From the IMG/VR virus record IMGVR_UViG_3300002307_000103, positions 1-40,908 of that record: 40,908 nucleotides of DNA. The stretch is one strand, 5' to 3'. Source of the DNA: a virus. Lineage: Duplodnaviria > Caudoviricetes. Both the position numbers and the translations under genes were made by a program. Shown in pieces: positions 3 to 40,442 of this stretch. The notes under the pieces are model-generated. The model was given only the letters and a program-made list of their open reading frames with translations, was not told the origin of the DNA and made no database searches. Within the stretch, counting starts at the first letter, position 1; each line of letters opens with the position of its first letter.

Positions 3-1301
3 GCGCCCACGGCCCCCAGCGCGCCCGCCCTGCCCGTTCCGCCGACCGCCCCGCAGCCGCCCGGCTTGCCCGTCGCGCCGACGCCCGACGCTGGTACGGG
101 AGGCGGCCCAAGCGGCACCGGCCCTTTCGTCTCTGGGGTCGCGGCCCCATCCCCGGCACCACCCGTTAGTACGCCTTTAAAGCTTGCTCCGGGGCAGCAG
201 GCGCACGTCGCTGTATCCGATCTACCCGCGCCCGTCGCGCGCCCTGATATGCCTACCGCCATGGGTCCAACCCGCTCGAAATTACTCGACGCGGCGTACA
301 AGATCATGGCCGGCGGCAATGCGTACGAAAGCGATCGCGGACAGGATATGTACGGTTCGGGTCTGTCCGAGCAAGACAAACTTGACGAAGCCGCCACCGC
401 TCGGCAATTCGAGTTGCAGAAGATGGGATACCAAACCGACCTGGGCGTGTACGGTGACGCGGCGTCAGCGGATCGTGGTGCCCGTATTCACGATCACGAA
501 GCGGGCGTCCAGCAAAATTACAACGTGGACAACGCCAACGCGGATCATGCGTACGGCGCGGACCAAGGCGCGAAGAACCGCGCCAATGAAGTAACGATAC
601 AGGGTATGCGCGACCGTTCGGCTATCGCGGTGGAAAAACTACGGGCTGCGAACATCGATAATGCCCTTACTCCCGAAGAAAGTACTGCGATTAGCGCCGC
701 CATCGGCGACCATCGGCTCGACCCTATGCGGGTTAACAGCCGCAACCAAAAGGCACTCGGCAGGGCGCTAGTGGCAAACCCTGGCCTAGACGCTATACAC
801 TTGCACGGTATCGCGCAGCTTGACGCCAGCCCGGCGGCGCAGCAGAAAGCGATGCTACTCGAAGCATTGCCTACGGTACTGGGAAATGTCAGGGACGCCG
901 GAAGTAAGCTCAACTACTCCAACGTGCAGTTTATGGGCAAGCTGCAAGCGATGGCGAAAGGCCAGCTAAACGACCCCGATTTCGTGGCGTACATGGGGCT
1001 GCGTAACGACGCGCTACAGACCCTTTCGACCGTCATGCGGAATACGGGCGCGACCGATCTCAGCACGAAGCTAGAGGCGGAAGCCGCTCGGCCCACTATG
1101 TCACCGCGTGCGCAAGACGCATGGCTGAACGCTCAGTTGACGGCAGTACGCCCCCGTCTTGAAGCGGCGGAGAAAAGAGGGCTGGTGGCTCCCGGTACGA
1201 CAGCGGCGGTATTCGCGAGTACGACTGCAAAGCCCTCGTCGCAACCCGCTTCCGCAGCGGCCTCGGATAGCGGTTGGGGCAAGGCAACGGTGGTAAACTA
1301 A
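3..1301 (+). CDS. Internal virion / DNA ejection protein, 5'-truncated (probably the C-terminal part of the ORF starting at 40439)
   Basis: Frame is open from position 3 (APTAPSAPALPVPP...). Pro-rich, then Ala/Gln-rich helical sequence. Lies between other ejection-type genes; its stop overlaps the next ATG (TAATG). Confidence 0.6.
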   Translation, partial: APTAPSAPALPVPPTAPQPPGLPVAPTPDAGTGGGPSGTGPFVSGVAAPSPAPPVSTPLKLAPGQQAHVAVSDLPAPVARPDMPTAMGPTRSKLLDAAYKIMAGGNAYESDRGQDMYGSGLSEQDKLDEAATARQFELQKMGYQTDLGVYGDAASADRGARIHDHEAGVQQNYNVDNANADHAYGADQGAKNRANEVTIQGMRDRSAIAVEKLRAANIDNALTPEESTAISAAIGDHRLDPMRVNSRNQKALGRALVANPGLDAIHLHGIAQLDASPAAQQKAMLLEALPTVLGNVRDAGSKLNYSNVQFMGKLQAMAKGQLNDPDFVAYMGLRNDALQTLSTVMRNTGATDLSTKLEAEAARPTMSPRAQDAWLNAQLTAVRPRLEAAEKRGLVAPGTTAAVFASTTAKPSSQPASAAASDSGWGKATVVN

Positions 1302-3598
1302 TGCCCAAGTACTCTATCCAAGCGCCGGATGGCCGCACCTACCAGATCGACGGACCGCCCGGCGCGACGGATGACCAAGTGCGCCAAAAAGTACTGGAGC
1401 AGCACCCGCAAGCCGCGCGCCCTGCCCCAAAATCGTTCCTGGGTATGCTAGGGCGCGGTATGCAGAACCTACCCGGTGACGCCGTGGATACCGTTAAAGC
1501 GATCCCTGGCGCTATAGTAGGCGCGGAAAAGCTCGCAGAAGGCGCGTACCAGCGCGGTATTCGCGACAATCTGCCTACCCCGCTACAGGGCAATCAGCCC
1601 CGGTACGATACTTCTGCATTTGACGCAACCGTGCGGGATACGGTAGGCGCAGCGAAGGGCTTTGCGCAGCACGTACGCGAAATGTCCCCAGCGGACCAGC
1701 GCGGTACGGCCCCGTCAGTCGCTACCCCCGACGATACGGCTGCGTACAACGAAGTCGCGAACGCCAACTACGATAAGTACGGTACGAAACAGAACGTGTA
1801 TCGCACAGTCGCCGAACACCCTATTGCGGCGATTGGGGACGTAGCATCGGTCGTTGACCCCGTACTAAAAATCCCAGCCGTAGCGGCGAAAGTGGGCGAG
1901 GCCGGGCAGGTTGTGCGGGGCCTCGCCGGGGCCGTTGGCGCTAAGGTGGGCGAGGCCGCCGCGCCCCTAGCGGACGTGGTGACCGCCGAACGCCGTGGTA
2001 CGGCCATAGCTGAACAAGGCCGTACCGCGACTACTGCCGACGAAGCCGCTGCACAGGCCGCCGCCGAGGCTAAGTCCGCCGCTGACGCCGCCGCTGCGCA
2101 GCGTACGATGACTTTGGCGCAAAAGCGTGCCGCGTACGAAGATCGCGTGCGTACGCTTCGGGCACAGAAAACAGCGGCGTCTGCGGCCCCCGAACTGGGC
2201 CTAGGCGACCCCGCGCACTTGGACGAAATCGGTACTAGCTACCGCGATCCAGCCGTCGCGAACGCCGACAAGCTGAACGAAGGTATGCGTACAGCGGATG
2301 CGCAGTACCGTGATGCCATGCAACAAGTGGTGGACGCGCGGGCGACCATGGGTGTCGGCGTATCTGACATGCCCACGGCTAAAGACCTTATCGCGAAGTC
2401 TAGGGCCATAGTAAAGCCTGATCCGGTGGGCCGCCCGACTGTGGGGCTAGAGCCCGCTGCCGACGCGGGGGGACGACTACACCAACGTGTACTCGACGCG
2501 CTAACTCCACAGAAAATACCCCTTTCGCCCTCCGAAGCCGCAGAGGCGGCGAAAAAAGGCGACACTATCATAACGGATAGTACGGGTGCAAAGTACAAGA
2601 TCGTAAAACCCAGTTTCCAGGGCGTAGATGAACTTCGCCGGTTCCTGGGCCAAGTCCGCAGCGGAACGGTAGAAGACTTTAAAGCGATCCCCGCGATGGA
2701 AGCGGGCAATCTCTACGGTGACGTGTCCAAAGTACTGGATGAGTACGCCATGGGAACTCGCGCCCCCGTGCAAGCCAACTGGAAAGCGGGTAAGGCCGCC
2801 CTCGCACCGTACGAAGAGGCCGCAACGGGTAAAATGCTTACCGGCGTTCAGCCTAATACGGGTGGTATGCCGTCAACGCCCGCGTCAGCCATCCCCGGTC
2901 GCGTGGTCGCCGGGGGTCGGGAAGGCTTTAACCAGATCGCGGCGATTACGGGGCGTGGAAACGCCCTGGCGGCCCTGCGAAGCCAAGTACAGAATGGTCT
3001 TGCGGGCAAGTCCGCAGATGCAGCGCATGCTCTCGTTGCGCCCGGTACGCAGCTCGGTAGCGTGATTGCGGGGGACAGTGAACTGTCCGCCCAAGTGTCA
3101 GATTACCTACAGCGCCTACGCGCCTCCGAGCAAGCCGGTACCGACGCACAGGCGTTGGGTAAGCGCCTTGACGCGTCCACGGCCCGTACTGCTAATTTGA
3201 ACAAGGTCGCATCGGCGCTGCAAGATAGCTCTGCCAAAGCGGCAGTAACAGCCCGCCAAGCCGAACAAAATATACTTGAACTTAAGCAGCTACCCGCGCC
3301 GCTGGTAATTCCCCGGTACCGGAAAATGCTGACCGACGCGCATACAGCCGGGCGCATAAGTACGGAAAATCTATCAGCGGGCATGGACCTTGCCAATAGC
3401 GCCGAAAAAGCGTTCAAGACAAAAGATATGCGCGATACTTGGCTCAAGAACGCGGGCATGACACTTGGGGCGGGCGCGATCCCGCTGACCGCTGGCGCTC
3501 CGCTCGCAGTTGCCGGTGCGGCCGCCGGGGCGGGTTTGGGTATCGGCGTACTTGGCCGCAATCTGCGTCACGCCACTATTTTCCGCCACAAGAAGTAG
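1301..3598 (+). CDS. Large internal virion / DNA ejection (transfer) protein
   Basis: ATG at 1301 is coupled to the upstream TAA. N-terminus MPKYSIQAPDGRTYQIDGPPGAT resembles podophage ejection proteins. Ala-rich coiled coils and a hydrophobic Gly/Ala C-terminal segment; sits just before the tail fibre. Confidence 0.6.
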   Translation: MPKYSIQAPDGRTYQIDGPPGATDDQVRQKVLEQHPQAARPAPKSFLGMLGRGMQNLPGDAVDTVKAIPGAIVGAEKLAEGAYQRGIRDNLPTPLQGNQPRYDTSAFDATVRDTVGAAKGFAQHVREMSPADQRGTAPSVATPDDTAAYNEVANANYDKYGTKQNVYRTVAEHPIAAIGDVASVVDPVLKIPAVAAKVGEAGQVVRGLAGAVGAKVGEAAAPLADVVTAERRGTAIAEQGRTATTADEAAAQAAAEAKSAADAAAAQRTMTLAQKRAAYEDRVRTLRAQKTAASAAPELGLGDPAHLDEIGTSYRDPAVANADKLNEGMRTADAQYRDAMQQVVDARATMGVGVSDMPTAKDLIAKSRAIVKPDPVGRPTVGLEPAADAGGRLHQRVLDALTPQKIPLSPSEAAEAAKKGDTIITDSTGAKYKIVKPSFQGVDELRRFLGQVRSGTVEDFKAIPAMEAGNLYGDVSKVLDEYAMGTRAPVQANWKAGKAALAPYEEAATGKMLTGVQPNTGGMPSTPASAIPGRVVAGGREGFNQIAAITGRGNALAALRSQVQNGLAGKSADAAHALVAPGTQLGSVIAGDSELSAQVSDYLQRLRASEQAGTDAQALGKRLDASTARTANLNKVASALQDSSAKAAVTARQAEQNILELKQLPAPLVIPRYRKMLTDAHTAGRISTENLSAGMDLANSAEKAFKTKDMRDTWLKNAGMTLGAGAIPLTAGAPLAVAGAAAGAGLGIGVLGRNLRHATIFRHKK

Positions 3599-3608
3599 AG
3601 GAAATACT

Positions 3609-6540: not shown

Positions 6541-6546
6541 GGGGTA

Positions 6547-6574
6547 TTGACAACCTAGAAACACACTGTAAAGA
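6547..6574 (+). promoter_or_regulatory. Possible sigma70-type promoter for the lysis cassette
   Basis: TTGACA-16 nt-TAAAGA in the intergenic gap before the lysis genes; the -10 element is weak. Confidence 0.35.
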
Positions 6575-6632
6575 GGTTACTACCATGGTTAAGCTAACCG
6601 GGTACTTCTGGTCGAGAATAGGGGACGAGTTG

Positions 6633-6923
6633 ATGAGTGATCCGGGGGATAAGGCGACCAGCAGGTTCTTTAAAGTCGAAGTGTTCGCCTTCGTCTTTGC
6701 CATCATCGTACAGTCCGCTACCGGCATCTGGTGGCTGTCGTCTGTCGAGACCCGTATCAACGGCATCGACAAGGCCGTCAACACTCTGATCGAGGACAAG
6801 GCTACCTATGCTCGTCAAGCGGTGGACGTAGCCCGTATTGACGAGCGTACGAAAGACATGGACGCCGCGTTGTCCCGTATTGAGCGGGCGCAGGACGTGG
6901 ACAACCAGAGGGGCAAGCACTAA
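6633..6923 (+). CDS. Single-TM coiled-coil membrane protein (holin/antiholin-like)
   Basis: GGGGA RBS before ATG 6633. Hydrophobic VFAFVFAIIVQSATGIWWL followed by a coiled coil; directly upstream of the endolysin. Confidence 0.5.
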   Translation: MSDPGDKATSRFFKVEVFAFVFAIIVQSATGIWWLSSVETRINGIDKAVNTLIEDKATYARQAVDVARIDERTKDMDAALSRIERAQDVDNQRGKH

Positions 6924-8725: not shown

Positions 8726-10401
8726 AGTTCTATGCCTCCGAATGAATGGTGGGGTATCTCGGGCACATGCCCAATATCAATGCGCATGGTGCGCTGGTAC
8801 GCCAGCATGGACTTGCGGAACCGGGCCATATCGTCCCCGTTCTCAAACCACGAATTGTACCGTACTTCGTCAGTAGTATTACGCGCCATGATGACGTGTA
8901 TACCGACGATCCCTGTCTGGCCGGATCGGGCGAGGCGGGCAGTAGTTTGCAAGTACCGCTCCAGCGACCAGATCGTAGTAAACCAGATTAAAGTATGCCC
9001 GCCGAATTGCAAGTTGAGCCCGTGGGCCGCCGACTGCGGGTGTATTAGCAGGTTGGGTATTTGGCCCTTATTCCAGTCGTCGATTATGCGCTGGCTGTTC
9101 TTGCCCTTTAGGACCGAGTACGGGATACCCTCTTTCTTGAACCGGGCGGTGATACGCTCCAGATCGTGCGTGAAGTGGTACGGTATCAGCGCGTGCTGAT
9201 CCAGACTGTCGATTATTTCGACTAGCTTGTCCAGCTTACGCGTGTGTATTTCCTTCCACTCTCGTTTGCCGTACTCGTCAGTCGTGTACATCGCCCCGTT
9301 GCACATTTGCCAGCACATCATGGACTTGGCCCCGCCGTTGGCGGCCATGATGGGGTCTTTAAACATCTCCAATACTGCTTCCCGCTCGATACTGCGGTAG
9401 TGTGGGAGAATGTCGTCGGGCAGGTCGATGTAATGCTTTACCGGGGGTAGCTGCTGCGGTAGTACACCGTAATCTTCCCCCGCCAGTTCGACGGTGATAT
9501 CCGAAATAAGTTCGTGTATGCGTTCTTGGCCGCCTTCAAGTACTTCCCACTCTGGCCGGGCTTCATCCTCGTCGGGGTTCAAGACGTACTTGAACGTATG
9601 CGCTGCGACCTTCTTAGCCTTGCGGAAGAACCGGCCTTGGTACGTATCGAACGAGCGGTTGAGGCGTGCGCCGTGATCCATCAGATAGAACGGCGACCAT
9701 AGGTTCTGGAGACCGGATGGCGAAGGCGTGCCCGTAAGGATGGCGGACCTTTTAAAGCGTGGCGGGGGTACTACGGTGTTAAGCCCCGTCAGCGGGTCCA
9801 CCAGGGGTTTGCCGTCCGGCCCCTTGACGGTCACGCGCGTACCGTAGTTGGACAATACGCGGAAACGCTTCGCCCGGTTGTCCTTGAACATTGAGCTTTC
9901 GTCAATGATAAGTGCGTCGTACTGGCTCTCCCAGTCGGCCCGAATATACTTCTGCAACCACGCGAGCATTTCCGGGTTTACCAGGTGTATGTGCGCCGGG
10001 CGTTTCTGCGCAAACGAGCGCGTCTTTTCGTCGCCACGTATTAGCTGGAATGTTAGGTGCTTAGTATGGTGCCATTCCTGCGCCTCTTGCCGCCACACGC
10101 TCTCGCATACCTTGATGGGGGCAACCACCAGAACCGGGCGCGTGACGATCCCCAGGCGTATCCATTCCACGATAGCGGTAAGGGCGGTAACGGTCTTCCC
10201 CAGGCCGGGGTCAATGTGTACCGCCGTGCCATCAAACGTGTCGGACATAGGGAAGCCCGTAAGCCGGTCCCGCGCCTTGCGCCCGGTAAAAATCTTGTGG
10301 GCCGCGCGTAGCTGATACGAACGCATAGGCTTGCCGTCCGACACGCGGGTACGTGGCGCGGCCCAATCAAACGTACTTTCGGACAGTAGGTCGGGAAGCA
10401 T
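8722..10401 (-). CDS. SNF2-family (SF2) helicase
   Basis: Motifs DPGLGKT, IIDESS, LTGTP, AHGLNLQ and QTTARLARSGQ. Confidence 0.9.
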   Translation of the reverse strand: MLPDLLSESTFDWAAPRTRVSDGKPMRSYQLRAAHKIFTGRKARDRLTGFPMSDTFDGTAVHIDPGLGKTVTALTAIVEWIRLGIVTRPVLVVAPIKVCESVWRQEAQEWHHTKHLTFQLIRGDEKTRSFAQKRPAHIHLVNPEMLAWLQKYIRADWESQYDALIIDESSMFKDNRAKRFRVLSNYGTRVTVKGPDGKPLVDPLTGLNTVVPPPRFKRSAILTGTPSPSGLQNLWSPFYLMDHGARLNRSFDTYQGRFFRKAKKVAAHTFKYVLNPDEDEARPEWEVLEGGQERIHELISDITVELAGEDYGVLPQQLPPVKHYIDLPDDILPHYRSIEREAVLEMFKDPIMAANGGAKSMMCWQMCNGAMYTTDEYGKREWKEIHTRKLDKLVEIIDSLDQHALIPYHFTHDLERITARFKKEGIPYSVLKGKNSQRIIDDWNKGQIPNLLIHPQSAAHGLNLQFGGHTLIWFTTIWSLERYLQTTARLARSGQTGIVGIHVIMARNTTDEVRYNSWFENGDDMARFRKSMLAYQRTMRIDIGHVPEIPHHSFGGIEL

Positions 10402-10402
10402 G

Positions 10403-10693
10403 TTAGTTCATCTTCCCCGCTGCTTGCGCCGCCTTACCCGCCCGCACGGCGAGTTCCTTTAAAGTCTGCGCGTACCCGTCCATGACGTTCATCATGATGA
10501 ACCGCGACTTGTCGGCGTCGGTCATGTGCATTACTTCGGGCGCGGTCATGATGACGCCCGCAACCCGCAGGAGCGTCGCCGCGACCTCTACGGCGTTGTC
10601 CTCGGTGAGCGCCATCATGGCGACGGTCTGGAGCCGGTCGGATAGTTCTTTGAGCGGTTTGTTCGCAATAATTTTGGCGAGTTCATCGGCCAT
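10403..10693 (-). CDS. Hypothetical protein
   Basis: 96-aa helical ORF in the operon; AAGGA RBS. Confidence 0.65.
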   Translation of the reverse strand: MADELAKIIANKPLKELSDRLQTVAMMALTEDNAVEVAATLLRVAGVIMTAPEVMHMTDADKSRFIMMNVMDGYAQTLKELAVRAGKAAQAAGKMN

Positions 10694-11006
10694 CGGTACG
10701 TTCCTTGTTGCATAGGTCCATGAGGTATTCGTATATCTCTTGTACGTCTTCGTACGAGCTTATCGCGCGAGACCACACCTTGCAGCCTCGCCTACGCCAG
10801 TCGTTCGCGATAGTAGCTTGCAGGAGCCTCAAGTCCTTACCAGGGCGCTTGCACTCCGCAAACCACGGCACGCCCGGCGACCACAAAGGCCGCAGTATTA
10901 GGCGATCTGTGGCCCCGGCGGTGCCCTCGGTGACGAGCTTAAGCACTTTAAAGCCTTCGCCCTCTAGCCGGGTCTTGAGCCGCTTTTCTACCGGGGCCTC
11001 TTTCAC
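10683..11006 (-). CDS. VRR-NUC domain nuclease
   Basis: E...GATDRLIL...FAECKRPG...LQ matches the PD-(D/E)xK pattern; usual position upstream of the SNF2 helicase. Confidence 0.8.
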   Translation of the reverse strand: MKEAPVEKRLKTRLEGEGFKVLKLVTEGTAGATDRLILRPLWSPGVPWFAECKRPGKDLRLLQATIANDWRRRGCKVWSRAISSYEDVQEIYEYLMDLCNKERTDGR

Positions 11007-11335
11007 GACTTGCCCCGGTACGCGTCGAAGTACAGGGCCAGTGTATCACGCAGCGCGGGCGGACACGATACTTTGTGGTCCGCAAATAGTCCCTCGATGT
11101 GTTTCCAGGCGGACGTACCGAACGTCGCGCGCCAGACGATATGCGGCCCCTCGATTGGCGAGATTGACATAATGGCGTCGGGCTGCACCAGTATATTTGC
11201 GTACTGGCATCGGTACTCTTGCGCTTCGCGCTCGCACTGGACTTGCCACGCCTCGCGCTGCTGTTCGGTACCGGCGTACCACTCGGTTTCGGTGAGGGCG
11301 AAGCAACAGACGTTGCCCTGAACTAGACGTTTCAT
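11003..11335 (-). CDS. Hypothetical protein
   Basis: Starts immediately after the upstream stop and is ATGA-coupled to the downstream gene. Confidence 0.6.
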   Translation of the reverse strand: MKRLVQGNVCCFALTETEWYAGTEQQREAWQVQCEREAQEYRCQYANILVQPDAIMSISPIEGPHIVWRATFGTSAWKHIEGLFADHKVSCPPALRDTLALYFDAYRGKS

Positions 11336-11560
11336 TTAAAGTACATCCTTGCTGTGCTGTTTAATTTCGGTCTGTACGTCGCGCCAGAGCATACGCATTG
11401 TCGCCATAAACGTATCCTCTTCGCACTCCATCGGTAGTACGATTGATACGGTAAGCACTTCGTTATTTGCGCAAGCGCATCTGTACCGAAGTGTGACGGT
11501 GAGAGGCGCAAGTCCGGCTGCGTTATGTGGATTACCCGGTTTAGCAAGTCTATGTACCAT
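11336..11560 (-). CDS. Hypothetical protein
   Basis: 74 aa; exactly fills the gap between the polymerase stop and the next ATG (TAAATG at both junctions). Confidence 0.55.
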   Translation of the reverse strand: MVHRLAKPGNPHNAAGLAPLTVTLRYRCACANNEVLTVSIVLPMECEEDTFMATMRMLWRDVQTEIKQHSKDVL

Positions 11561-13714
11561 TTAAACGTACCTTTCCATTTCCGTGCCTTCGGCTTCGATG
11601 GGCAAGTCAGTTACCCACGCCTCCTGTTGGCACATTACTTGTACGAGGTGATCTGCGCTCCCGAAGTCAATCGGGGGCATGGTGACGTTACTGTCGTGTA
11701 CTAGCATAACAGTCGGGTATCCGGCTGCCTCGGCATTCAGGCCGCCCACGACGAGGATATCCCGCGCAATGGCCTGAACTATATTCTCGGTCATCTTACC
11801 GCCGTAAGTACTTTCGCGGTAGCTCTTGCCGTTCCATTCAGTACGGAACGAGAGTTGTTCGACCGTACGGCCCCAGCGGTTAACCAGGGACAGTTTCGGG
11901 CGGTAGTAATGCAGGCAACGCCCGCTCGGCAATTCGACCTTGAGCCAGTACCGCTCTTCGTCAATGTGCCAAGTATAGAACTTAACGCCCGTACCGCCCA
12001 ACTCGAACACACGGCCCGGCGAGGCGACAGCAGCCACGGCGCAAGCCTCGATGCGCGACCAAAGCTGCACGATCATCGGGTTCGCTTCGCGATACGCACC
12101 GATGGTTACTTTGGCTTCGTCCTCGGTGATCATGATATCCGAGTTGTCGCAGTACTCGACAAACTTCTTCGCGCCCAGGCCGAACCCGGCCCCCAGAACC
12201 GCCGACTTGGCGATCTGGCGCGGGCGCTTCATGAGCGGGATAACCGTACGCTTGCCGTCCACGATGGCGAACGCGCCGTCATAGTCGGTGGGAGCGCCTA
12301 GGGCCTCGCACGCGAACTTGATGTACGGGTCTTTCTTGGCGCGGAACGCGTCTAGCAGGTCCATCTGCCGCGCAAGCCACGCCAGTACTCGCGCCTCGAT
12401 CTGTGAGAAGTCGGCGTCAACGAATTTGTGGCCCAGCTTCGCTTTAACGAAGCCCTTCATAGATACGGATAGGGCGGCCAGGGGGCGCATAAAACGCCAC
12501 TCAGCGGCGTCCACCCACGCTTCCTTACCATCGTACAGGTTCGGGTCGGCCCATACGTTGCCCTCTAGGAACTCGAACATAAGCCGCGCCATCTTGGCGT
12601 CGCTGCGCTTCATGTTCCCGGTCTGAATACGCTTGTGCGACCAGCGCATTGTATGCGCCCCGCCGTACAGGTGGCCTCCGCGAGCGAACCCGTCCGGGTC
12701 CGTGCATTCGCGCATACGCTGGAGTTTCTTGATCGACGCCAGCGAGCAATCTAGGCGTATCTGGATCAGGTCTTGTAGGTCCGCCGGTAGCATATCCTCG
12801 GCGGGTATATCGGCTGCGACGAGACGCTTTAAAGTCTTCGAGCGCAGATCGCCTAGATCGGTGATCTCCTCTCGTTGCTGTAGATATTCCAGTACTCTAT
12901 CACGCTGAGTTGGGCGCAGCGCTGTAATCTCTTCGAAACGCGAAACTGCGCTATCGGTGAAGTACGCTGAGAAACGCTCGGCGCGTTCAACGCCTTGTAC
13001 GTCAATGGGTACTCCGCGTACGTTGATAGCAAAATCCCACTCCCAGGCAGCTTGCTCAAACGGCGGCAAGTCTGGTAGTACTGCGTCAACTTCGCTTTCC
13101 GCCTCGCCATCAATTTGACAGTACTCAAGGCCAATTTGCCACCCGGTCGGATTTTCTTCGGGCTCGTACCAGAGGTCTTTAACGACGCCCAGCTTTTTCG
13201 CGCCCTTGTACTTTCGTGGCTTGCAGAAGTCATTTATGAATTGCTTTCCGCGTTCATCTTTTTGCGTAATGACTTCAAGGTCGGACGCCGACCCATCGAG
13301 ACTAGCGCGCAGTCCGAAATAACGACTGCGCGCCGCAGTACACGACCACGCGACTGGCATCGGCCAGCCCCATTTTTGGTGACAAATATAGTAGTATATT
13401 GCCTGTTCAAATCGCGCGTTATGCGCAACGAATGTGTCGCCGCGTTCAATCGCGCGAAGGATAGCAGGCGGGCAAGGTACTTTAAAGGTCGCCCAGTCCG
13501 GCATAGGGTTTTTGGGGTAGGCATGTTGTGAGTATCCGGGTATGGCGAAGAAGTCTATGGTCTCAAACTTGGGTAGCACGCCCTTCGGTGCCGTACCTAT
13601 GGTTAGCATCAGCGGGGTAGTAGACCAGTGGCGCGCGTACGCGTGTTCGCCGAGCTTGATCAAGTCGATCAGACTGCGGCTTTCAAAGTCTAGGTGGGTC
13701 CGCTGGGGTTCCAT
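11561..13714 (-). CDS. polA: DNA polymerase, family A, with 3'-5' exonuclease (APSE/SPO2-like)
   Basis: ExoI LDFESRS, ExoII AHNARFE, ExoIII YCQID; motif A DFSQIEAR, motif B RQIAKSAVLGAGFG, motif C VHDS. Start placed at MEPQRTH. Confidence 0.93.
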   Translation of the reverse strand: MEPQRTHLDFESRSLIDLIKLGEHAYARHWSTTPLMLTIGTAPKGVLPKFETIDFFAIPGYSQHAYPKNPMPDWATFKVPCPPAILRAIERGDTFVAHNARFEQAIYYYICHQKWGWPMPVAWSCTAARSRYFGLRASLDGSASDLEVITQKDERGKQFINDFCKPRKYKGAKKLGVVKDLWYEPEENPTGWQIGLEYCQIDGEAESEVDAVLPDLPPFEQAAWEWDFAINVRGVPIDVQGVERAERFSAYFTDSAVSRFEEITALRPTQRDRVLEYLQQREEITDLGDLRSKTLKRLVAADIPAEDMLPADLQDLIQIRLDCSLASIKKLQRMRECTDPDGFARGGHLYGGAHTMRWSHKRIQTGNMKRSDAKMARLMFEFLEGNVWADPNLYDGKEAWVDAAEWRFMRPLAALSVSMKGFVKAKLGHKFVDADFSQIEARVLAWLARQMDLLDAFRAKKDPYIKFACEALGAPTDYDGAFAIVDGKRTVIPLMKRPRQIAKSAVLGAGFGLGAKKFVEYCDNSDIMITEDEAKVTIGAYREANPMIVQLWSRIEACAVAAVASPGRVFELGGTGVKFYTWHIDEERYWLKVELPSGRCLHYYRPKLSLVNRWGRTVEQLSFRTEWNGKSYRESTYGGKMTENIVQAIARDILVVGGLNAEAAGYPTVMLVHDSNVTMPPIDFGSADHLVQVMCQQEAWVTDLPIEAEGTEMERYV

Positions 13715-19791: not shown

Positions 19792-20526
19792 CTACAGGAT
19801 CGACGGGAGCGCGTCGATGGCCTTGGACGAACCAATGCCGAGCATCAGTTGCGCCGGGCCGATATACCGGGTCTGGAGCATCTTCTCCAGCGCGGCACGG
19901 TCGGCGCCTTCGCCCACCTTGGTCTCGATCAGCGCCTTCAAGTACGCGATGCCGTCGCCGCCGACTTTGGCCTTCGCCATCAGGAAGGTGAACTTGGCGT
20001 CCTTCGCCTTCTCGCTGTCGAAGACTTCGCGGACCACGGCGTCGGTAACAACGGAAGTCAGCGGGTCTTTGGTCTTGCGGGCCTTCGGTTCGTCCGACTG
20101 CTTGCGCACGTTGCCCTTGGACAGATCGTCCACGGCGCGGGCGTACGCGTCGGCGTAGTCGGGCTCAGCGGGCTCGGCGTCGGTCGGACGCGCCACGATG
20201 GTTTGCAGCGGGTCGGCGGCGGAAGCCGCTTTAAAGGCAGCCCAGGCGGCCACCAGCGGGTCTTTGTTGTACCGGGTCTGGACGCTGTTCAGCCGGTTGG
20301 CGATGTACGCCCGCGTGTGGTCCTTGAGGAAGGACAGGCGCAGTTCGGCGGGGATCAGGGCGCAGTCGAACGACTGCGGACCCTTGAGGTTCGGGTATTC
20401 CGTGACCAGCACGGAAGCAGCGACCGCCGGAGTATCGGCAGCGGGAGCGCCGCCGTCATCGGCCATGCGGCAGGCCAGGGCGTGCGCGGCGAGACCGGCG
20501 ATCATGGCGTGGGAGCGGAGGGTCAT
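19792..20526 (-). CDS. Hypothetical Ala/Lys/Asp-rich protein, probably highly expressed
   Basis: Own promoter, AAGGA RBS, strongly GC3-biased codons, followed by hairpins. Confidence 0.75.
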   Translation of the reverse strand: MTLRSHAMIAGLAAHALACRMADDGGAPAADTPAVAASVLVTEYPNLKGPQSFDCALIPAELRLSFLKDHTRAYIANRLNSVQTRYNKDPLVAAWAAFKAASAADPLQTIVARPTDAEPAEPDYADAYARAVDDLSKGNVRKQSDEPKARKTKDPLTSVVTDAVVREVFDSEKAKDAKFTFLMAKAKVGGDGIAYLKALIETKVGEGADRAALEKMLQTRYIGPAQLMLGIGSSKAIDALPSIL

Positions 20527-21839: not shown

Positions 21840-22036
21840 GGGCGAGGGCTCCGGTTAGGGTGAGGGGATACGCTACACGCGGGACGGATTTCGTCAACGT
21901 CCCACGTCATGCCGCACGCGCGGCAATGGAGTTGATCGGACGTGAGGCGCGACGGGGCGGGACAGCCCCCCGATATGCGGGCGCTAATGGCCCCCTTAAG
22001 AGTATGCGGGGGGCCATGGCGGGACTTGCGTTTCAT
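21836..22036 (-). CDS. Small putative Zn-ribbon protein
   Basis: C...HCRACGMTWD...C; ATGA-coupled to the upstream gene; AGGAG RBS. Confidence 0.55.
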   Translation of the reverse strand: MKRKSRHGPPHTLKGAISARISGGCPAPSRLTSDQLHCRACGMTWDVDEIRPACSVSPHPNRSPRP

Positions 22037-22872
22037 TCAGCTAACTCCTGGGCTTTCTCGATTTCCTTTGAAATGTGGTCGTACGCGTCTTCCGGCGTCG
22101 CGGCGTACCGTGACGCGTCCACCATACCGTTAAGCACAACCGACCCTAACGGCGCGTTAATCAGGTCGCTAACTTCGGTCCGTACCGTGGTCCCGTAACC
22201 GCGCTGCGCGGGCGCTGCGCAGCGCTCAATAACGGAGAAGCACAAGCGGCGGAACATAGCCGGGTGACCTATGGCGAACGCCATATTCGCAAGGTCTAGG
22301 GGTTGATCTACGTACTTCACGCGCACGGTTGCGGCGATACGCATAGAGCGCATTTGGATAGAGAACGCCGCGTACACTTCAACGCGCGTTCCGTTGGTTT
22401 CCATTTGATTGACGTACTGCGCAATACCAGTCCCGTAGTTCGCCATAGCTTGCGCGTCCGTGTACGCGTTTGCGCCGATCCCCACGATTAGGGTTAGTAC
22501 TTTGCCGCTCCCGTTGTCGGCGCGCGGCGTATGGCGAACCATGCAATCGGGAGCGCCCGCGCAAAAGCGTGCAACGTGCGGGCGGAACCCGTAAAAGTCG
22601 GTCTTAGTGTCGGGTTCCGGGGTAGCGAGCGCAAAGACCTTTAAAGCGTCTTGCACCCGTTCCGCGCCCTCAATCCATCCGTCGCGCGCCATGCGCAACG
22701 CGCCAGCGTACCCCGCGTTCAAGTCCCACGAATGCGAGCGGTGTTCCTCGACTGAATACCGGAAATCGCGGGCGGGGAACCATGTTTCAGGCGTCGCGTC
22801 GATCCAGCGTTGCAGATCGGGGAGGCTATCGAACGCGTACAGGGCGCGTTTGGCGTTAACACGGGTTTGCAT
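22033..22872 (-). CDS. vWA/CobT-like partner of the MoxR-type ATPase
   Basis: Directly downstream of the AAA+ gene; alpha/beta pattern (LTLIVGIGAN...VEVYA...VRVK...AFAIGHPAMFRR); no canonical DxSxS MIDAS motif. Confidence 0.55.
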   Translation of the reverse strand: MQTRVNAKRALYAFDSLPDLQRWIDATPETWFPARDFRYSVEEHRSHSWDLNAGYAGALRMARDGWIEGAERVQDALKVFALATPEPDTKTDFYGFRPHVARFCAGAPDCMVRHTPRADNGSGKVLTLIVGIGANAYTDAQAMANYGTGIAQYVNQMETNGTRVEVYAAFSIQMRSMRIAATVRVKYVDQPLDLANMAFAIGHPAMFRRLCFSVIERCAAPAQRGYGTTVRTEVSDLINAPLGSVVLNGMVDASRYAATPEDAYDHISKEIEKAQELAE

Positions 22873-22876
22873 GGTC

Positions 22877-24208
22877 CTAGGCTCCCACCGTCACGGCGCG
22901 TTCGATCTGGTCTCGCGTATCAGTGTCAAGACCCTTGTACACGCAAGCGCTCGCTACGGTCTCCCAGTCCAGCCCGGCGTCTAGCAGCTTGCAACCGTCA
23001 TATGTAGCGCGCGGCGTGACAAGGTGCGCCAAGCCGCGTTTGGCGACTTCGCCGCGCACGGTTTGCACGTACTTGCACCAAGCGGGGTTAGTCGCGAGGG
23101 CGCTTTCTAGCTGGTCATCGTATCCGAACTCTACAAACGCGAAACGGTCCACGCTGGACCCGTCAAGCTGGTTACGTCCCGCGTACTGGCGCGACGCGCC
23201 CGAAAGCTTTGTATTCCCCGCGCCTAGGCAAATGAATTGCGCGTGGCGCTTTACGATACCGTCGGGGAACGGGCATTCCCCGTTCGCGAGCGCGGCGTTT
23301 AGCGCGACTACGGCGGACGCGCTTGACGCGTCCATTTCGTCAAACAAGAAAACCCCGCCGTGTTCGTACGCTTCGCGGAATTGCGTACGTACTGCGTCCC
23401 CCTTGGCGTCCGTGAAGCCTAGAAGCTGGTACTCGCTTTCGACCTTGGCCGCGAAGTAGAATTTAACCCCGAACGCTTCCGCGACCTTGCGCCCGACCGT
23501 TGTCTTCCCGCTACCCGCGGGACCATGCAAGTACACGTTAACGCCAGTCGCGAGCATGGAGATTATTTGCGGCGTTTTGAAATGCACCAAACCAAGCGGG
23601 AGCGGCGGCGCGTCTTTGCGCTCTATCTCCAGACGCATAGGCGTCATTGCCTTTAAAGCTTCCCCGCACGCTTTCAGCGCCAGACTTTCCATGTTCGCAG
23701 TAAGCGCCATTACCATACGCGACACTTCGGTCTCGGTCTCGCCAAGCCGCGCGCGCAAGTCCGTGTCTAGCGTTTCCATGGCGGACTGTAGGGGCGCGAG
23801 TACGCCCGTGCGTACTTCGGTCTTGATCATCACGCGCACGGTGTCGAGATCAACCGACCCGCTAGGGGCGGGAAGGGGCGGGAGAGGGTCGCCAGCGCCC
23901 GGCACGGGGAGCGGCATAGGGTCGGGCGCGAACGGGTCAAACCCCGCCTTAGCGCGCCCCATGCGCGCTTCGACGGTCGCCAGCATACGTTCCGCCGCGA
24001 TAGGGTCTTTGCGCCCGACAAGGTAAACCCCGATTAAGTCCGTGTCGGATAGCGCGTCGGTATTTTGCGAGCCGATTGCGCCCGCGTACGCGCGCAGCGC
24101 ATTGCGGGTTCCGTCAACTAGGCGGCCGCCCGGCTTGATTGGGCGAGAGTTGTCCAACTTCGCCAGTATCGCGCCCCACTGGGTGAGTTTATCGTGATTG
24201 ATTGCCAT
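22877..24208 (-). CDS. MoxR/CobS-like AAA+ ATPase
   Basis: Walker A GPAGSGKT, Walker B FLFDEMD, sensor AGN and QLDGSSVDRF; N-terminal coiled coil; AAAGGA RBS before ATG 24208. Confidence 0.85.
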   Translation of the reverse strand: MAINHDKLTQWGAILAKLDNSRPIKPGGRLVDGTRNALRAYAGAIGSQNTDALSDTDLIGVYLVGRKDPIAAERMLATVEARMGRAKAGFDPFAPDPMPLPVPGAGDPLPPLPAPSGSVDLDTVRVMIKTEVRTGVLAPLQSAMETLDTDLRARLGETETEVSRMVMALTANMESLALKACGEALKAMTPMRLEIERKDAPPLPLGLVHFKTPQIISMLATGVNVYLHGPAGSGKTTVGRKVAEAFGVKFYFAAKVESEYQLLGFTDAKGDAVRTQFREAYEHGGVFLFDEMDASSASAVVALNAALANGECPFPDGIVKRHAQFICLGAGNTKLSGASRQYAGRNQLDGSSVDRFAFVEFGYDDQLESALATNPAWCKYVQTVRGEVAKRGLAHLVTPRATYDGCKLLDAGLDWETVASACVYKGLDTDTRDQIERAVTVGA

Positions 24209-24264: not shown

Positions 24265-24870
24265 CTATTCCGTATCGGGTTCCGCGCCTTCGCAAAACAA
24301 TTCGCCAGCGCAATCGGGAACGGGGCAGTTCAAGTACGCGTGCGGCGCAATATGCTTGTTGGTGACCCGCGCGAGCCAACCGCACGCGGGGCATTCCAGC
24401 TTCAAGAGGGCGGTTGGCTGTTTCTTGCGCCCGCTGGATATACCGCCCGTTATCGCGGCATATGGCATATCACCAAGGCTTGTGATGATAGGGAGCGCCC
24501 ACGCGTACCAGTCCGCGCCCGCGACCGTGCTAGTCATCTTGCCTTCAAGTCCGACCGAAAGCGCGACGCGTTTAAACGTCGCGTTGTGACCCTTATCGAG
24601 ACCCACGGCGGCGTGGATCAATTCATGGGTGAGGGTACTGCAAACCAGCGCAACGTCTGTCAGGGTCGGTTTTATAAATATCTCAAAGTGACCGTCATCG
24701 CTGGCAACGTCGCTCCAGCACTCCCCGATGGCGCGACCTTTAAAGCCTTTGGACGTGAACCCCACGGCAACGCGTACGTTCGGGGGGATTGCGGCGTTGA
24801 TCGCGGCGAACTTGTCGCGGCTCGCGTCGATGAAAGCTTGTAACCATTGTTCGCGGGTTTCGTATTGCAT
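24265..24870 (-). CDS. SprT-like zinc metalloprotease with C-terminal Zn ribbon
   Basis: HELIH...GH zincin motif; C-terminal CPACG...CPVPDC. Confidence 0.8.
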   Translation of the reverse strand: MQYETREQWLQAFIDASRDKFAAINAAIPPNVRVAVGFTSKGFKGRAIGECWSDVASDDGHFEIFIKPTLTDVALVCSTLTHELIHAAVGLDKGHNATFKRVALSVGLEGKMTSTVAGADWYAWALPIITSLGDMPYAAITGGISSGRKKQPTALLKLECPACGWLARVTNKHIAPHAYLNCPVPDCAGELFCEGAEPDTE

Positions 24871-25795: not shown

Positions 25796-26478
25796 GGTTT
25801 CTCTCGATTGGCTCGCGTTGCTTCAACTATAGAGCCATGTAACAGGTGAAAACTGATTTTGCTAACGAATTATGGGGGTTTGGGGAAAGCCTAGCGTTTT
25901 CAACGCGCTAACACCTTTTGGCGCAAGTGTTTGCATTGTCGCAAATAGGGTTAGCAGAGGGACGTCTTTTATGTGTGCAACTTCGCACACGCCCTCAGTA
26001 ACCGACCTCTCTCTATTCAACTATATATAGGGTTGTTGGCATATATATATATATATACTTATATAGACTAACGGAAGGACGCCAAAGTATCATATTTAAG
26101 TATATTACTTCCCCGATAGATCCTGTATGCAACAAGTACGGGACGCGTTGCTTAGCCGGGCGCTGGTGTATAAAGGTGTAACCCCATTATATTTTACCCG
26201 AATAACCGTGGAAGTAATTGGCAAGAGGGCGGGCAGGCGGCAGGCACATACTAGTAATATACTGTATTGCATAAGCACTAAGTACCATACGCGTACACAA
26301 GTGCTTTAAAGCACGCGACTAGCCTAGGTCTCTATCGCTTGTTTACATACTCAAACGCTTTAAAGCGCTTCAATACTTGTACAATACTAGAGCCATTACT
26401 TCACGAATACTTAGGCCACCGGGTCGAGCGGCAGGCGGGGCCCTAGTAATTCTATATACCAACGAACCAAAATTTCCG

Positions 26479-26568
26479 TAGTTTCATACCGGGGACCTAG
26501 TATTATACTAGTTTCATACCGGGGACCTAGTATTATACTAGTTTCATACCGGGGACCTAGTATAATAC
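26479..26568. repeat. Tandem repeat, 3 x 30 bp, with internal palindrome
   Basis: TAGTTTCATACCGGGGACCTAGTATTATAC twice, then a third copy with one T>A change; junctions form CTAGTAT-t-ATACTAG. Confidence 0.95.
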
Positions 26569-26589
26569 TTCTACCAAGCCAGATCAGGC

Positions 26590-27522
26590 TTGACACCCCC
26601 GTACACGCCGCTTCCGAACTACGCGGTACTCGTCAACCACCTGAGCTTCTCCTGCAACAAGAATATAGTACTCAACATAGGTGTTCAGAACGGTAGCAGT
26701 ATCTCCGGGGCCGGTACCACGCCGAGCGGGAATATTCAGGTGGTACTGGCACCGGGGGTTCCGGTGGCGGTTCCCATGAATATACTGCTTCGGCCCGCGA
26801 TCCAGGGTAATACCGGCATCACCGCCGCGATCCGGGACTTGCTAGACACCGACCGCACTAACGTCGTGTGCCTGGGGCAAGTGGTCGGGTACGAGATCGC
26901 TGACGACGTGAACTTCAACGCGCCGACGACGATATTCTGGCACGGCGACAGCCTGAGTAAGTCTACAATCGGCGTGACCGACAAGACCGGCTCGCAGCCG
27001 TTCCTGACGCTGAAGTACTACAAAGACAAGGGCATCAACGCCCGTCTGGTACTCCAGGCAACGTCGGGCTCTACTGCCGTCGGGCACGACACGTGGCGGA
27101 ATAACGGCGGCTCGGACTTCCTCGACAGCGTACAACTCATCGTGATCGAGTTGGGTACAAACGACGAAGGCGTCAACAGCGATACCGTCGTCGGCCAGAC
27201 CGTGACTAACTGGATCGCGTGGAAGAAAGCGCGCTATCCGGCGGCAAAAATGCTCATACTCGGACCGCCGCAGCGCAATAACGCGGGCGAAGAGACGCTT
27301 ATGGCGTTGATCCGTACTGCCGAGCAGGCGGCGGTGACGAATGCAAACGACGCGAACGTAAAATACTGCTCGCTCGCGTCGCCGCAGCCGTTCGACAATA
27401 CGCAGACCGCCAACTACGCGGACGGCGGCGCTCCGTATGTCCACCCCACGCAGGCGAATAACGTCCTGATCTGGACAACGAACCTCAAACCCTGCTTGGA
27501 CGCCAACATACCGACCCTGTAA
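26590..27522 (+). CDS. SGNH/GDSL hydrolase (esterase) domain protein; start uncertain
   Basis: Block I WHGDSL, block II ATSGS, block III ELGTND, block V D....VHP. Confidence 0.8.
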   Translation: MTPPYTPLPNYAVLVNHLSFSCNKNIVLNIGVQNGSSISGAGTTPSGNIQVVLAPGVPVAVPMNILLRPAIQGNTGITAAIRDLLDTDRTNVVCLGQVVGYEIADDVNFNAPTTIFWHGDSLSKSTIGVTDKTGSQPFLTLKYYKDKGINARLVLQATSGSTAVGHDTWRNNGGSDFLDSVQLIVIELGTNDEGVNSDTVVGQTVTNWIAWKKARYPAAKMLILGPPQRNNAGEETLMALIRTAEQAAVTNANDANVKYCSLASPQPFDNTQTANYADGGAPYVHPTQANNVLIWTTNLKPCLDANIPTL

Positions 27523-33784: not shown

Positions 33785-33808
33785 AACCCCTTTCTATAGG
33801 AGCCCACA

Positions 33809-34783
33809 GTGGCCGTACCCAATCTTTCGGAGATCGTGACTACCACGATCGAAAATCGCAGTAAGGCCGTCGCCGACAACGTGAGCAAGTCTCACGCGCT
33901 GCTCGACCGCCTGGAAGCCAAGGGCAAGGCGAAGCCCGCTGACGGCGGTCGCCGTATCCTGCAAGAGATCGAATTTGCCGAGAACGGCACCTTCGGCTGG
34001 TACTCGGGATACGACACGATCAACATTTCCCCGCAGGAAGTGTTCTCGGCCGCCGAGTTCGACTGGAAGCAAGCCGCCGTCGCGGTGTCCGTTTCCGGCC
34101 TCGAACAACTGATGAATACGGGCGAAGAACAGTTCATCGACCTGCTCGAAAGCCGTATGTCGAACGCCGAGCGTACGATGAAGAACCAGATGGGCCTCGC
34201 CGTGTACGGCGACGGCACCGCTGCCGGCGGTAAGGCCATCGGCGGTATGGCGTTGCTGATCGCTGACGCGAATACTGTCGGCACCGTCGGCAACATCAAC
34301 CGCGCCAACTGGTCCTTCTGGCGCAATCAGTCGTTCTCCGCGGTCGGCGACTACGGCGGCGCCATGACCAACGCCAACGTGCTGTCGTACATGGCCCGTA
34401 CGTGGCTGACCCTCGTTCGCGGCAACGAGAAGCCCGACCTTATCCTGGCGGACAACAACTACTACCGCCTGTACTGGGAGAGCCTGCTTCCGCAACAACG
34501 GTTCATGTCGCCCGCCATGGCCGAAGCCGGCTTCGAGAGCCTCAAGTACCAGAGCGCCGACGTGGTGTTCGACGGCGGTATCGGCGGCGGCTGCCCGGCG
34601 AACCATATGTTCTTCCTGAACACCGAGTATATCTACATGCGGCACCACCCGAAGCGCCGGTACGTCGCCATCGGGGAGCAGCAGCGGTTCTCGACCAACC
34701 AGGACGCCATGGTTCAGCTGATGGGTTGGGCCGGTAACATGACCCTCTCCGGTGGGCTCATGCAGGGCGTACTCCGGGCCTAA
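33809..34783 (+). CDS. Major capsid protein
   Basis: 324 aa, AGGAG RBS, highly biased codons; HK97-like features (YSGYDTI, AEFDWKQ, YGDGT, GFESLKY). Confidence 0.9.
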   Translation: MAVPNLSEIVTTTIENRSKAVADNVSKSHALLDRLEAKGKAKPADGGRRILQEIEFAENGTFGWYSGYDTINISPQEVFSAAEFDWKQAAVAVSVSGLEQLMNTGEEQFIDLLESRMSNAERTMKNQMGLAVYGDGTAAGGKAIGGMALLIADANTVGTVGNINRANWSFWRNQSFSAVGDYGGAMTNANVLSYMARTWLTLVRGNEKPDLILADNNYYRLYWESLLPQQRFMSPAMAEAGFESLKYQSADVVFDGGIGGGCPANHMFFLNTEYIYMRHHPKRRYVAIGEQQRFSTNQDAMVQLMGWAGNMTLSGGLMQGVLRA

Positions 34784-34793
34784 GACTACAACC

Positions 34794-34817
34794 GGCGGGG
34801 GCTTTAAAACCCCCGTC
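34794..34817 (+). terminator. Hairpin after the capsid gene
   Basis: GGCGGGGG-ctttaaaa-CCCCCGTC; no strong U tract. Confidence 0.45.
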
Positions 34818-34851
34818 AACCCTCTCGCTTCCTTTGTGAAGGATACTGAAT

Positions 34852-35397: not shown

Positions 35398-35418
35398 GTT
35401 CAACCGGGGTCAGACCCA

Positions 35419-35451
35419 AGGGGGCGGTACTTCGGTGCCGCCCTCTACTTT
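35419..35451 (+). terminator. Probable intrinsic terminator with cUUCGg tetraloop
   Basis: AGGGGGCGGTAC-TTCG-GTGCCGCCCTCT followed by ACTTT. Confidence 0.65.
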
Positions 35452-35468
35452 AAAGCAAAGGCAATCCA

Positions 35469-36194: not shown

Positions 36195-36216
36195 CACCAA
36201 CCGGGGCGCGTAGGAC

Positions 36217-39073: not shown

Positions 39074-40442
39074 TACCTATAAGCAAATCGGCACCAACGC
39101 TGACGGTACGGGCCAGTACCAGCAGACCACGGCGTACAGTCCCGACGAGCAGAAAAAGTACGATCTGAATAACCAGGTCGCGATAAGTCTCGACGGGCTT
39201 GCCAACGATAGCGTCGGGCGTGTCGCCCAGACAGAAAGTACGCCGTTTAACTACAACGGCATGACCCCGCTACAAACGTCGGTGGACGCCGGGGGGCGTA
39301 CGCTGCAAAACGGCCCCGATGCGGGTCCGGTCATGTCGGGCGTGGGCGACCAGGGGAAGGCGGTCAACGCCAACGTACCCGGCGCCCCAATCCAAAACGG
39401 GCTAGACTACAGCGGTGCGCCCGCTCTGCCCGGTACGGGTGATTTCAGCGCGGACGCCAAGCGCGTGTCCGATAGCGTGTACTCGCAAGCCGCGTCGCGG
39501 CTAGACCCGCAGTACGGGCAGGAAGAGAGCGATCTGCGCTCGCGTCTGGCGGCGCAGGGTATCTCCGAGAACTCGGACGCGTACCGCCGCGAACTCGACA
39601 ATTTCAATCGCGATAAGACCGACGCGTACAATCAAGCAACGTACTCGGCCCAGCAGGCCGGGTCGGCGGAGCAATCCCGTATCTTTGGGCTGGCGTCCCA
39701 GGCGCGGGCGCAGGCCACTGGCGAGACGAATACGCAAGGCGCGTTCGCCAATAGTGCGCAGCAGCAGGGGTACGACCAAAGTATCGGTACGGCTAACCAA
39801 GCCAATACCGCGCAGGGCCAGAATTTCGACCAAGCGACGGCCATCGCGAACCTGTTCAATCAGTCGCAGCAGCAGCAGTTCTCGCAGGGCCAAGCGGCCA
39901 CGGCGATGAACAATACGAACCAAAATACAGCATTTAACCAGAACAGTGCGAACGCCGCTTTAAACAACTCGGGTCGGCAGCAGCAAGAGACGGAAGCGTC
40001 GTACTTGCGCAGTCTGCCAATCAACGATATTGCCGCGCTGCTCGGCACGGGCGCGCAAGTCCAAGACCCGAACTTCGCGCCCGTGTCGCAGGTCGGTGTC
40101 GCCGCGCCCGATTACATGGGTATGGTCAACAGCAACTACCAAGCTGCAACCAACTCGTACAACCAGCAGCAAGCCGCTCGTTCGCAAATGCTGGGGCAAA
40201 TCTTTGGTACGGCTGGGTCGGCGGCGGCGGTGTTCGCCGGGTCCGACGTACGCCTCAAATACGAAATCAAGCGTATCGGTACGCTGGCGAATGGCATTAA
40301 AACATATGCCTTTAAATACATCGGTGAGAACATCCAGCGCTTCGGCGTTATGGCGCAAGACGTTCTTGGCATCCGCCCCGATGCAGTCTCGATCATGCCG
40401 AACGGATACTTCGGCGTTGACTACGGAAAGGTCTACGCATGA
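38934..40442 (+). CDS. DNA ejection/pilot protein with C-terminal peptidase S74-type chaperone domain
   Basis: MGKSAPSPPPAPDP N-terminus, Gln/Asn/Ala-rich body and C-terminal SDVRLKYEIKRIG...GVMAQDV...VDY. Confidence 0.75.
   Translation: MGKSAPSPPPAPDPVATAQAQTQMNVASATAQANLNRIDQYTPQGSSTYKQIGTNADGTGQYQQTTAYSPDEQKKYDLNNQVAISLDGLANDSVGRVAQTESTPFNYNGMTPLQTSVDAGGRTLQNGPDAGPVMSGVGDQGKAVNANVPGAPIQNGLDYSGAPALPGTGDFSADAKRVSDSVYSQAASRLDPQYGQEESDLRSRLAAQGISENSDAYRRELDNFNRDKTDAYNQATYSAQQAGSAEQSRIFGLASQARAQATGETNTQGAFANSAQQQGYDQSIGTANQANTAQGQNFDQATAIANLFNQSQQQQFSQGQAATAMNNTNQNTAFNQNSANAALNNSGRQQQETEASYLRSLPINDIAALLGTGAQVQDPNFAPVSQVGVAAPDYMGMVNSNYQAATNSYNQQQAARSQMLGQIFGTAGSAAAVFAGSDVRLKYEIKRIGTLANGIKTYAFKYIGENIQRFGVMAQDVLGIRPDAVSIMPNGYFGVDYGKVYA

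Follow-up and report, generated by a model that had tools for sequence, protein, structure and literature searches.

The stretch of DNA analysed here (the window) comprises an entire virus record (IMGVR_UViG_3300002307_000103; 40,908 bp; 59.7% GC), the genome of an uncultured, podovirus-like phage. Two of its features are the subject of this report: a palindromic octamer, CTTTAAAG, which is iterated along the genome, and a gene on the minus strand (24265–24870) for a SprT-like zinc metalloprotease of 201 amino acids. The word forms an unstranded lattice of 53 sites with a TTTAAA core, reaching from 175 to 40317 with a mean gap of approximately 0.8 kb. Perfect copies, 32 in number, are located at 175, 2677, 6263, 6668, 7212, 8236, 8343, 10457, 10946, 12827, 13480, 14027, 15423, 15876, 16420, 17540, 19006, 19282, 19685, 20229, 20643, 21058, 21686, 22639, 23651, 24738, 26304, 26358, 30635, 32817, 35448 and 37418. 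The remaining 21 sites have one or two mismatches to CTTTAAAG, and CTTTAAA is found on one strand at 51 of the 53 sites, the exceptions being 11560 and 24571. A first-pass annotation of this DNA had listed 31 perfect copies, all correctly placed, but had missed the site at 6668; likewise, its counts of 52 cores, 50 of them within CTTTAAA, were each too low by one.

Across 100 dinucleotide shuffles of the window, CTTTAAAG occurred 0.30 times on average and never more than twice, compared to the 32 copies seen, which bears out the palindrome excess claimed for this GC-rich genome. The coding part was assessed using 200 shuffles preserving both protein sequence and codon usage. TTTAAA is present 39 times within genes versus 3.3 times in the shuffles (maximum 9), and CTTTAAAG 24 times versus 0.6 (maximum 5); similar counts were thus not reproduced. 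As the annotation had stated, the word falls in all three frame classes, with five sites providing a TAA stop, and eight sites lie between called genes. AT-rich codons are indeed forced into genes, as TTT-AAA encodes 21 of the 33 Phe-Lys pairs, though TTT makes up 105 of the 386 Phe codons. Based on the codon-preserving shuffles, selection of the word at the DNA level is confirmed. The sites are also spread along the genome, with two gaps below 150 bp against 9.2 at random (P 0.002) and a coefficient of variation (CV) of 0.75 (P 0.016). Since the CV of the word ranks fifth among 172 hexamers of similar count, the even spread is real but moderate.

The word is retained in relatives of the window phage, with 24–58 copies in each of eight near-complete genomes. 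Other lineages of the family use CATTAATA/G, TATTAAGA, CCTTAAAG or ATTTAAAT. One lineage has no TTTAAA at all, yet it carries 29 copies of CATTAAAG in 19.6 kb and is a natural recoding at kept density. Over eight genomes, one-base variants are enriched 14–28 fold at the outer base and 2–8 fold at positions 2 and 3. Variants of the central T are not enriched (0.2–0.7), which marks the TA core as essential. Word density in the same eight genomes is 3.1 per kb between genes, 2–3.5 in several early genes and about 1 in virion genes. The major capsid gene, located at 33809–34783 on the plus strand of the window, is free of sites, both there and in eight relatives; these 8,490 bp hold no site, whereas other regions have about 1–3 per kb. 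Close pairs of sites are depleted in 10 of 11 genomes (P < 0.05), and non-palindromic copies in the family show no strand bias (185 sense versus 187 antisense). No such word was found in capsid relatives with other replication genes, nor in the complete genome G013, which is nested within the family (capsid identity 71%). When IMG/VR was scanned twice with patterns for word pairs, most matches were due to chance or clustered at ends. An unrelated GC-rich phage with a LUZ24-like portal, G037 (L322–L323)/L172, has 18 exact copies of CTTTAAAG in 29.8 kb. In several AT-richer phages (L183 at 9137–13371, L240 at 3237–3370, L193, L202 and L259), CTTTAAAG or its variants form tight arrays 5′ of terminase genes instead of a lattice; these arrays recall the short terminal-region repeats of T7.

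The SprT-like protein matches phrog_6361 with an E-value of 1e-42. Its match to PF10263, which many close relatives carry, is weak (E 8.5e-5; 22.8 bits, under the cut-off of 25.6). The HExxH zinc-protease motif (H82, E83, H86; 24613–24627, minus strand) is conserved in 33 aligned relatives, with E83 invariant and H82 and H86 present in at least 90%. A basic stretch and a four-cysteine zinc ribbon follow at the C-terminus (residues 148–190; 24301–24429, minus strand; predicted strands 155–159 and 166–170), and C160, C163, R168, C182, C187 and K157 are invariant in the same alignment. The predicted structure (predicted local distance difference test, pLDDT, 87.7) consists of a zincin domain with the HExxH motif and then the C-terminal ribbon. 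In Foldseek, the top matches of this model were the human SPRTN structures 6mdw and 6mdx (E 3e-3 and 8e-3; probability 0.99), and none reached an E-value of 0.001. A dimer prediction scored 0.35 against a mark of 0.42 and is not used as support. The layout resembles that of the DNA-dependent metalloproteases SPRTN and Wss1 (PF10263), in which a basic part that binds zinc and DNA comes after an HExxH zincin fold. The ribbon is probably the DNA-reading domain. According to the accessible text of one study, SPRTN is guided by DNA structure (PMC7534798), whereas the phage protein is matched by an octamer, the outer base of which tracks one residue. Homologs of the gene were matched in 164 phage records, and many of the carriers are prophages.

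In the gene tables, the sole difference between G013 and the rest of the family is an early cassette of three genes: the SprT-like protease, a MoxR/CobS-like AAA+ ATPase and a DUF7192 protein. In the window, the ATPase gene (22877–24208, minus strand) is the next one downstream of the SprT-like gene; the DUF7192 protein (22033–22872, minus strand; PF23822, E 1.8e-30) is VWA-like by our reading and the partner of the ATPase. The SprT-like gene and the word, or a variant of it, occur together in the window and in relatives of both subclades. G013 has the same replication and virion genes as the family and has neither the SprT-like gene nor the word. The likewise complete G006 keeps the AAA+/DUF7192 pair without the SprT-like gene, and its word is the weakest in the family. 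Copies with a broken core number 11 in G006 against 4.8 expected, compared to 0–6 against 2.9–4.9 in eight other genomes. Both the weak word and this excess are as expected from decay after loss of SprT. The ATPase is a possible partner of the SprT-like protein in the window family; elsewhere the word does not require it, given that five cultured word-bearing phages were negative in a search for DUF7192.

The word class accompanies the gene outside the family as well. In a scan for DUF7192, unrelated AT-rich phages with the full cassette were found to carry dispersed GTTTAAAC (17, 10 and 24 copies), and loci with DUF7192 but no SprT had no TA-centred octamer. For a blind test, five cultured phages were chosen by their SprT homolog only, and a DUF7192 search was negative in all five. 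In every one of them the top dispersed 8-mer is a TA-centred octamer, either GTTTAAAC or GTGTAAAC (R5C, GTTTAAAC, 17 versus 0.04 expected; Pan1, 16; Zeta1847, GTGTAAAC, 22; Yang, 20; 4A, 13). A comparable octamer was absent from 16 genomes with neither SprT nor DUF7192. Eight further isolates, six of which were scored on the first 40 or 60 kb only, added two strong words (Araceli, 41 versus 0.05; Mica, 7 versus 0.08), so that 7 of 13 cultured SprT-bearing phages have the word overall. Most sites in the cultured word-bearing phages lie inside open reading frames (ORFs; 32/41, 17/20, 18/22, 9/13 and 10/17), and orientations in four of these phages (22:19, 6:14, 6:16 and 9:4) follow no consistent direction. 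The top words of CN2, Epa43, Eden and Dismas (L436–L439) are non-palindromic (AAGAAGTA, 15 versus 0.6; CCCTGGGC, 46 versus 5.1; AGTTCCTC, 13 versus 1.3 and 12 versus 1.0); they could be switched specificities.

A search with the SprT alignment yielded 78 new IMG/VR loci, of which 52 were left after removal of short ones (under 7 kb) and of any that carried core genes of the family. At a threshold of a corrected log10 P of at least 5 for a near-palindromic TA-centred octamer, 25 of these 52 non-family loci carry one; AT, CG or GC cores reach the same threshold in 1 of 52. None of 47 capsid-relative loci and none of 75 pattern-scan loci had such an octamer, after removal of five family or word-bearing loci and with CTTTAAAG not counted in the pattern-scan set, which was itself selected on CTTTAAAG. 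The cognate word of two Sphingomonas genomes, GTGTACAC, is clustered around the SprT gene. One genome, of 3.6 Mb, has 11 of its 14 copies within 36 kb, and the other, of 4.6 Mb, has 9 of its 11 within 38 kb; the word belongs to a prophage rather than to the chromosome. CTTTAAAG itself has 0 and 4 copies in the two chromosomes. Chromosomal enrichment, as for a Chi-like or uptake-sequence-like signal of the host, was not seen in these two proxies. Altogether, word-bearing SprT carriers span podoviruses, siphoviruses and prophages, from both Proteobacteria and Actinobacteria.

Protein residues were compared with words across 56 distinct proteins to which a word could be assigned. The best-associated alignment column is position 154, an Ala in the window protein (codon at 24409–24411, minus strand), which tracks the outer base of the word. 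Arg is found there with 37 of 37 G-flanked words and with 1 of 19 others; that one case, ATTTAAAC, is G-flanked on one half, and one of the other 18 is a truncated sequence. The corresponding Fisher P values disregard relatedness and are hence inflated. Ala, Ser or Tyr at 154 occur with C, Asn with ATTTAAAT (A) and Phe or Trp with CA/TA variants, and Arg-Tyr goes with GTGTACAC in 4/4 cases. Arg-guanine is a common contact between proteins and DNA. A tree built from the protease domain only places the CTTTAAAG carriers at two points: the window family and, next to the GTGTACAC group, a distinct clade of L509 and L526. The L509 protein carries a Tyr at position 154, and its locus has 20 copies of CTTTAAAG against 0.04 expected. 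Judging from this tree, CTTTAAAG arose in two separate non-Arg clades.

Taken together, we propose that CTTTAAAG is the binding site of the SprT-like protease, which would act as a tethered guard clearing host proteins from the phage DNA; for this whole chain we estimate a probability of about 0.55. That the SprT-like protein reads the word, with the zinc ribbon on the two halves and residue 154 at the outer base pair, appears very likely from the comparative data, and probably two copies of the C-terminal domain would be involved, one per half. The protease would dock on CTTTAAAG about every 0.8 kb along the phage DNA and, so tethered, could cut host proteins loading on or moving along it. 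Guesses at the substrates include translocases of restriction or other defence systems, silencers and crosslinked proteins. Given a SprT reader, local action, with each site covering some hundreds of bases, is fairly likely, as the sites seldom leave long gaps and there is selection against close pairs. Since the early arm begins with the SprT-like gene, action would be expected soon after entry. The first-pass view of the word as a self-mark of the phage is supported; the word is selected, sits on phage DNA and is nearly absent from the host-proxy chromosomes. As reader, an unknown ORF or a host protein had been envisaged. The former is supported, with the SprT-like gene as the candidate. The latter is not supported: the word class goes with a phage gene in hosts that include Alphaproteobacteria and Actinobacteria, and in two host genomes it does not extend beyond the prophages. 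More tentatively, and at somewhat less than even odds, phage SprT-like proteases may be a widespread class of sequence-specific, DNA-tethered enzymes guarding self DNA through cleavage of the host defence proteins engaging it, each with a private TA-centred octamer and a residue-to-base code.

Several observations weigh against this proposal. In G006, 24 perfect sites persist without a SprT-like gene, and the incomplete contigs of G008 and G037 have the word but no SprT gene. The contig of G008 stops on both sides of the position which the cassette has in close relatives. For G037, no SprT gene was found in the 73% of the genome covered, and we predict a non-Arg SprT homolog in the uncovered early region. 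The Arg strand is present in Arya and ep3, yet their words are weak (7 versus 1.0 and 4 versus 0.9), and a word of this class is missing from CN2, Epa43, Eden and Dismas, the C-termini of which are altered. Further, 27 of the 52 loci stay under the threshold; many of these are 7–13 kb long, too short for words 2–5 kb apart. Independent residue switches are few, two being clear, and one of the two sequences of the second clade is truncated. Finally, the sole phenotype published in the accessible text on this gene, clear plaques of a truncation mutant, favours a role in lysogeny over anti-defence (bioRxiv 10.1101/2025.05.26.655371).

Stoperators are 13 bp long, oriented with transcription and located at gene junctions. 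The main rival to a tethered guard is built on this model: the SprT reader would be a genome-wide repressor or roadblock that holds the phage in a quiet state and is switched through its protease domain. We consider it rather unlikely. Like the octamer, the stoperators of cluster A mycobacteriophage repressors are many genome-wide sites for one phage protein, but they are described as asymmetric and bound by a monomeric repressor (PMC9283540, accessible part), whereas sites of the window class are unoriented 8-bp near-palindromes, mostly coding, and their protein is a protease. The accessible text of one preprint reports a SprT-like protease (Lizalica gp46) for Arthrobacter cluster AZ and Microbacterium EB/EH phages. 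It places the gene near the integrase in all cluster AZ members, for which no immunity repressor is known, links truncation of the gene to clear plaques and describes cluster FP phages as lacking the gene; its main text mentions neither GTGTAAAC nor GTTTACAC nor any binding site (bioRxiv 10.1101/2025.05.26.655371). However, the Liebe/Maureen pair carries three further differences. Repression would also suit the many prophages among SprT carriers and the site distribution, which peaks in intergenic DNA and early genes and leaves the capsid gene free. On the other hand, sites lie mostly in ORFs without consistent orientation, and neither integrase nor repressor was matched when the window ORFs were searched against PHROGs and Pfam. 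Alternatively, the reader may act in trans, with the sites allosterically activating the protease only if phage DNA is there or has been amplified, to cut a soluble target of host or phage, as a copy-number or superinfection sensor. Proteases of the SPRTN family are described as DNA-activated (PMC5128726, PMC7534798, accessible parts), and the words are nearly missing from host chromosomes; nevertheless, a sensor needs a number of sites, not an even spread with close pairs depleted, and we regard this as improbable.

The SprT-like gene might also merely travel with another reader, such as the AAA+/DUF7192 pair, a replication enzyme or a host factor. All complete family members examined that bear the word, G006 among them, have the pair, DUF7192 phages without SprT over-use other words, and G037 shares just PolA, VRR-NUC and SNF2 in its covered part. 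Yet DUF7192 is missing from five cultured phages that bear the word, a TA-centred octamer is missing from phages with DUF7192 only, the replication module is present without the word in G013, G039, DSL-LC05, MD04 and P26218, and it is the SprT protein that holds the residue-to-base match, which leaves this explanation a slim chance. Highly improbable, finally, is a mutational or repair process that writes the word without benefit from the sites, after the methylase-driven model of Elhai for HIP1. The tolerant outer positions are shared with HIP1 (PMC4390886, accessible part), but short gaps are depleted, the capsid gene is spared, and one lineage switched to the second-best word at kept density. 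Further, the methylase link suggested by the HIP1 analogy found no counterpart: no methyltransferase was detected in 54 window ORFs searched against PHROGs (one weak match to a helicase region only) or in 43 searched against Pfam, though a host enzyme is conceivable. HIP1 and the alternate cyanobacterial HIPs resemble the window word as iterated 8-bp palindromes with lineage-specific replacements; they are, however, GC-rich, chromosomal and accompanied by cognate methyltransferases, whereas the window word is AT-rich, phage-only and found with a protease gene (Elhai 2015, PMC4390886, accessible part). B3 mycobacteriophages have a genome-wide excess of the palindromes GATC/GGATCC in a phage lineage, but it is about fourfold and no reader is proposed in the accessible text (Siranosian 2015, PMC4841201), compared to more than 100-fold for the window word. 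The annotation had also considered nicks as in T5 and kinks for packaging, neither of which is supported. Programmed nicks of the T5/phiKMV type fall on one strand in a polar consensus. The window word shows no strand polarity and is tied to an early gene, not to virion genes.

Other candidate readers were rejected individually. A family-specific helical protein of 221 amino acids encoded just upstream of the primase (19792–20457, minus strand) is present in all 13 family genomes spanning the region and has 90 relatives, but it occurs in word-less G013 as well and gave no clear fold or family match and no Atlas match at 0.9. A recognition site of the primase-polymerase is disfavoured, as the domain is conserved in G013 and the G037 primase is from a different family. 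Residues of VRR-NUC show no pattern with the word, and five genomes bear the whole replication module without it. Full CtrA sites number 0–2 per genome, and the window has no perfect DnaA box. G013 has four perfect, dispersed DnaA boxes (24759, 25811, 31896, 32763), compared to 0–1 in other relatives.

To our knowledge, highly iterated palindromes have so far had no known reader. If the proposal is true, it would provide the first named one for a palindrome of this kind in a phage and a way of marking self and non-self through protease binding sites instead of DNA modification, by a DNA-reading module of about 45 residues, retunable and fused to a protease. It would give a function to the gene matched in the 164 phage records and might help to explain why cluster AZ has no known repressor. 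The proposal is directly testable, as carriers include easy laboratory phages (Arthrobacter Yang, Microbacterium Zeta1847, Streptomyces Araceli and Dinoroseobacter R5C). A literature search, which covered few subscription papers, found no report tying a SprT-like gene to a DNA word.

Apart from the SprT cassette, the window encodes a replication arm of PolA, a Cas4-like protein, SSB, VRR-NUC, SNF2 and a primase-polymerase. Its capsid genes are Mx8/BUCT555-like, with at most 55% capsid identity to isolates, and no cultured relative at the genus level was found in our relative searches. GANTC is almost gone (GAATC 0 versus 57 expected, GACTC 2 versus 56). Because of this near-total loss, read in the light of CcrM, and since Sphingomonadales are among the nearest bacterial carriers of the window-type SprT gene, the sequence suggests an alphaproteobacterial host. 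Separate from the octamer, GTAC is in excess in the window (446 versus 192), in most relatives and in word-less G013; in G009 and G024 this excess is missing and ATAC is over-represented instead.

A second lattice was seen in a cultured phage, Sinorhizobium phage phiM5 (L335, MF074189), in which the interrupted palindrome CTGWCAG occurs 84 times versus 9.3 expected and TGACA 423 times versus 113; the AAA+/DUF7192 pair is present and a SprT homolog was not found. The pair is also present in P106B, LeBron, Krypton555 and Tunturi_4 (L371–L386), with SprT not found in the three searched, and over-used dispersed words in this set are CCTGGA (90 versus 13.7), CGCTAAG (95 versus 15.8 and 98 versus 23) and ATCCTAG (93 versus 14.6). 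The words of DUF7192 phages may be a sign of a second reader system; several DUF7192 contigs show weak words.

The non-coding region between the two arms of the window holds three tandem units of about 30 bp (26481–26570; core TAGTTTCATACCGGGG) and a TA run near 26040, and the closest pair of word sites (26304, 26358) falls in the same region. The repeats are a candidate origin or packaging region. The adjacent GDSL/SGNH hydrolase gene (26590–27522, plus strand) is free of sites and was not found in the relatives compared. Just 3′ of the capsid gene, a GC hairpin at 34792–34820, probably a terminator, carries one word site in its loop.

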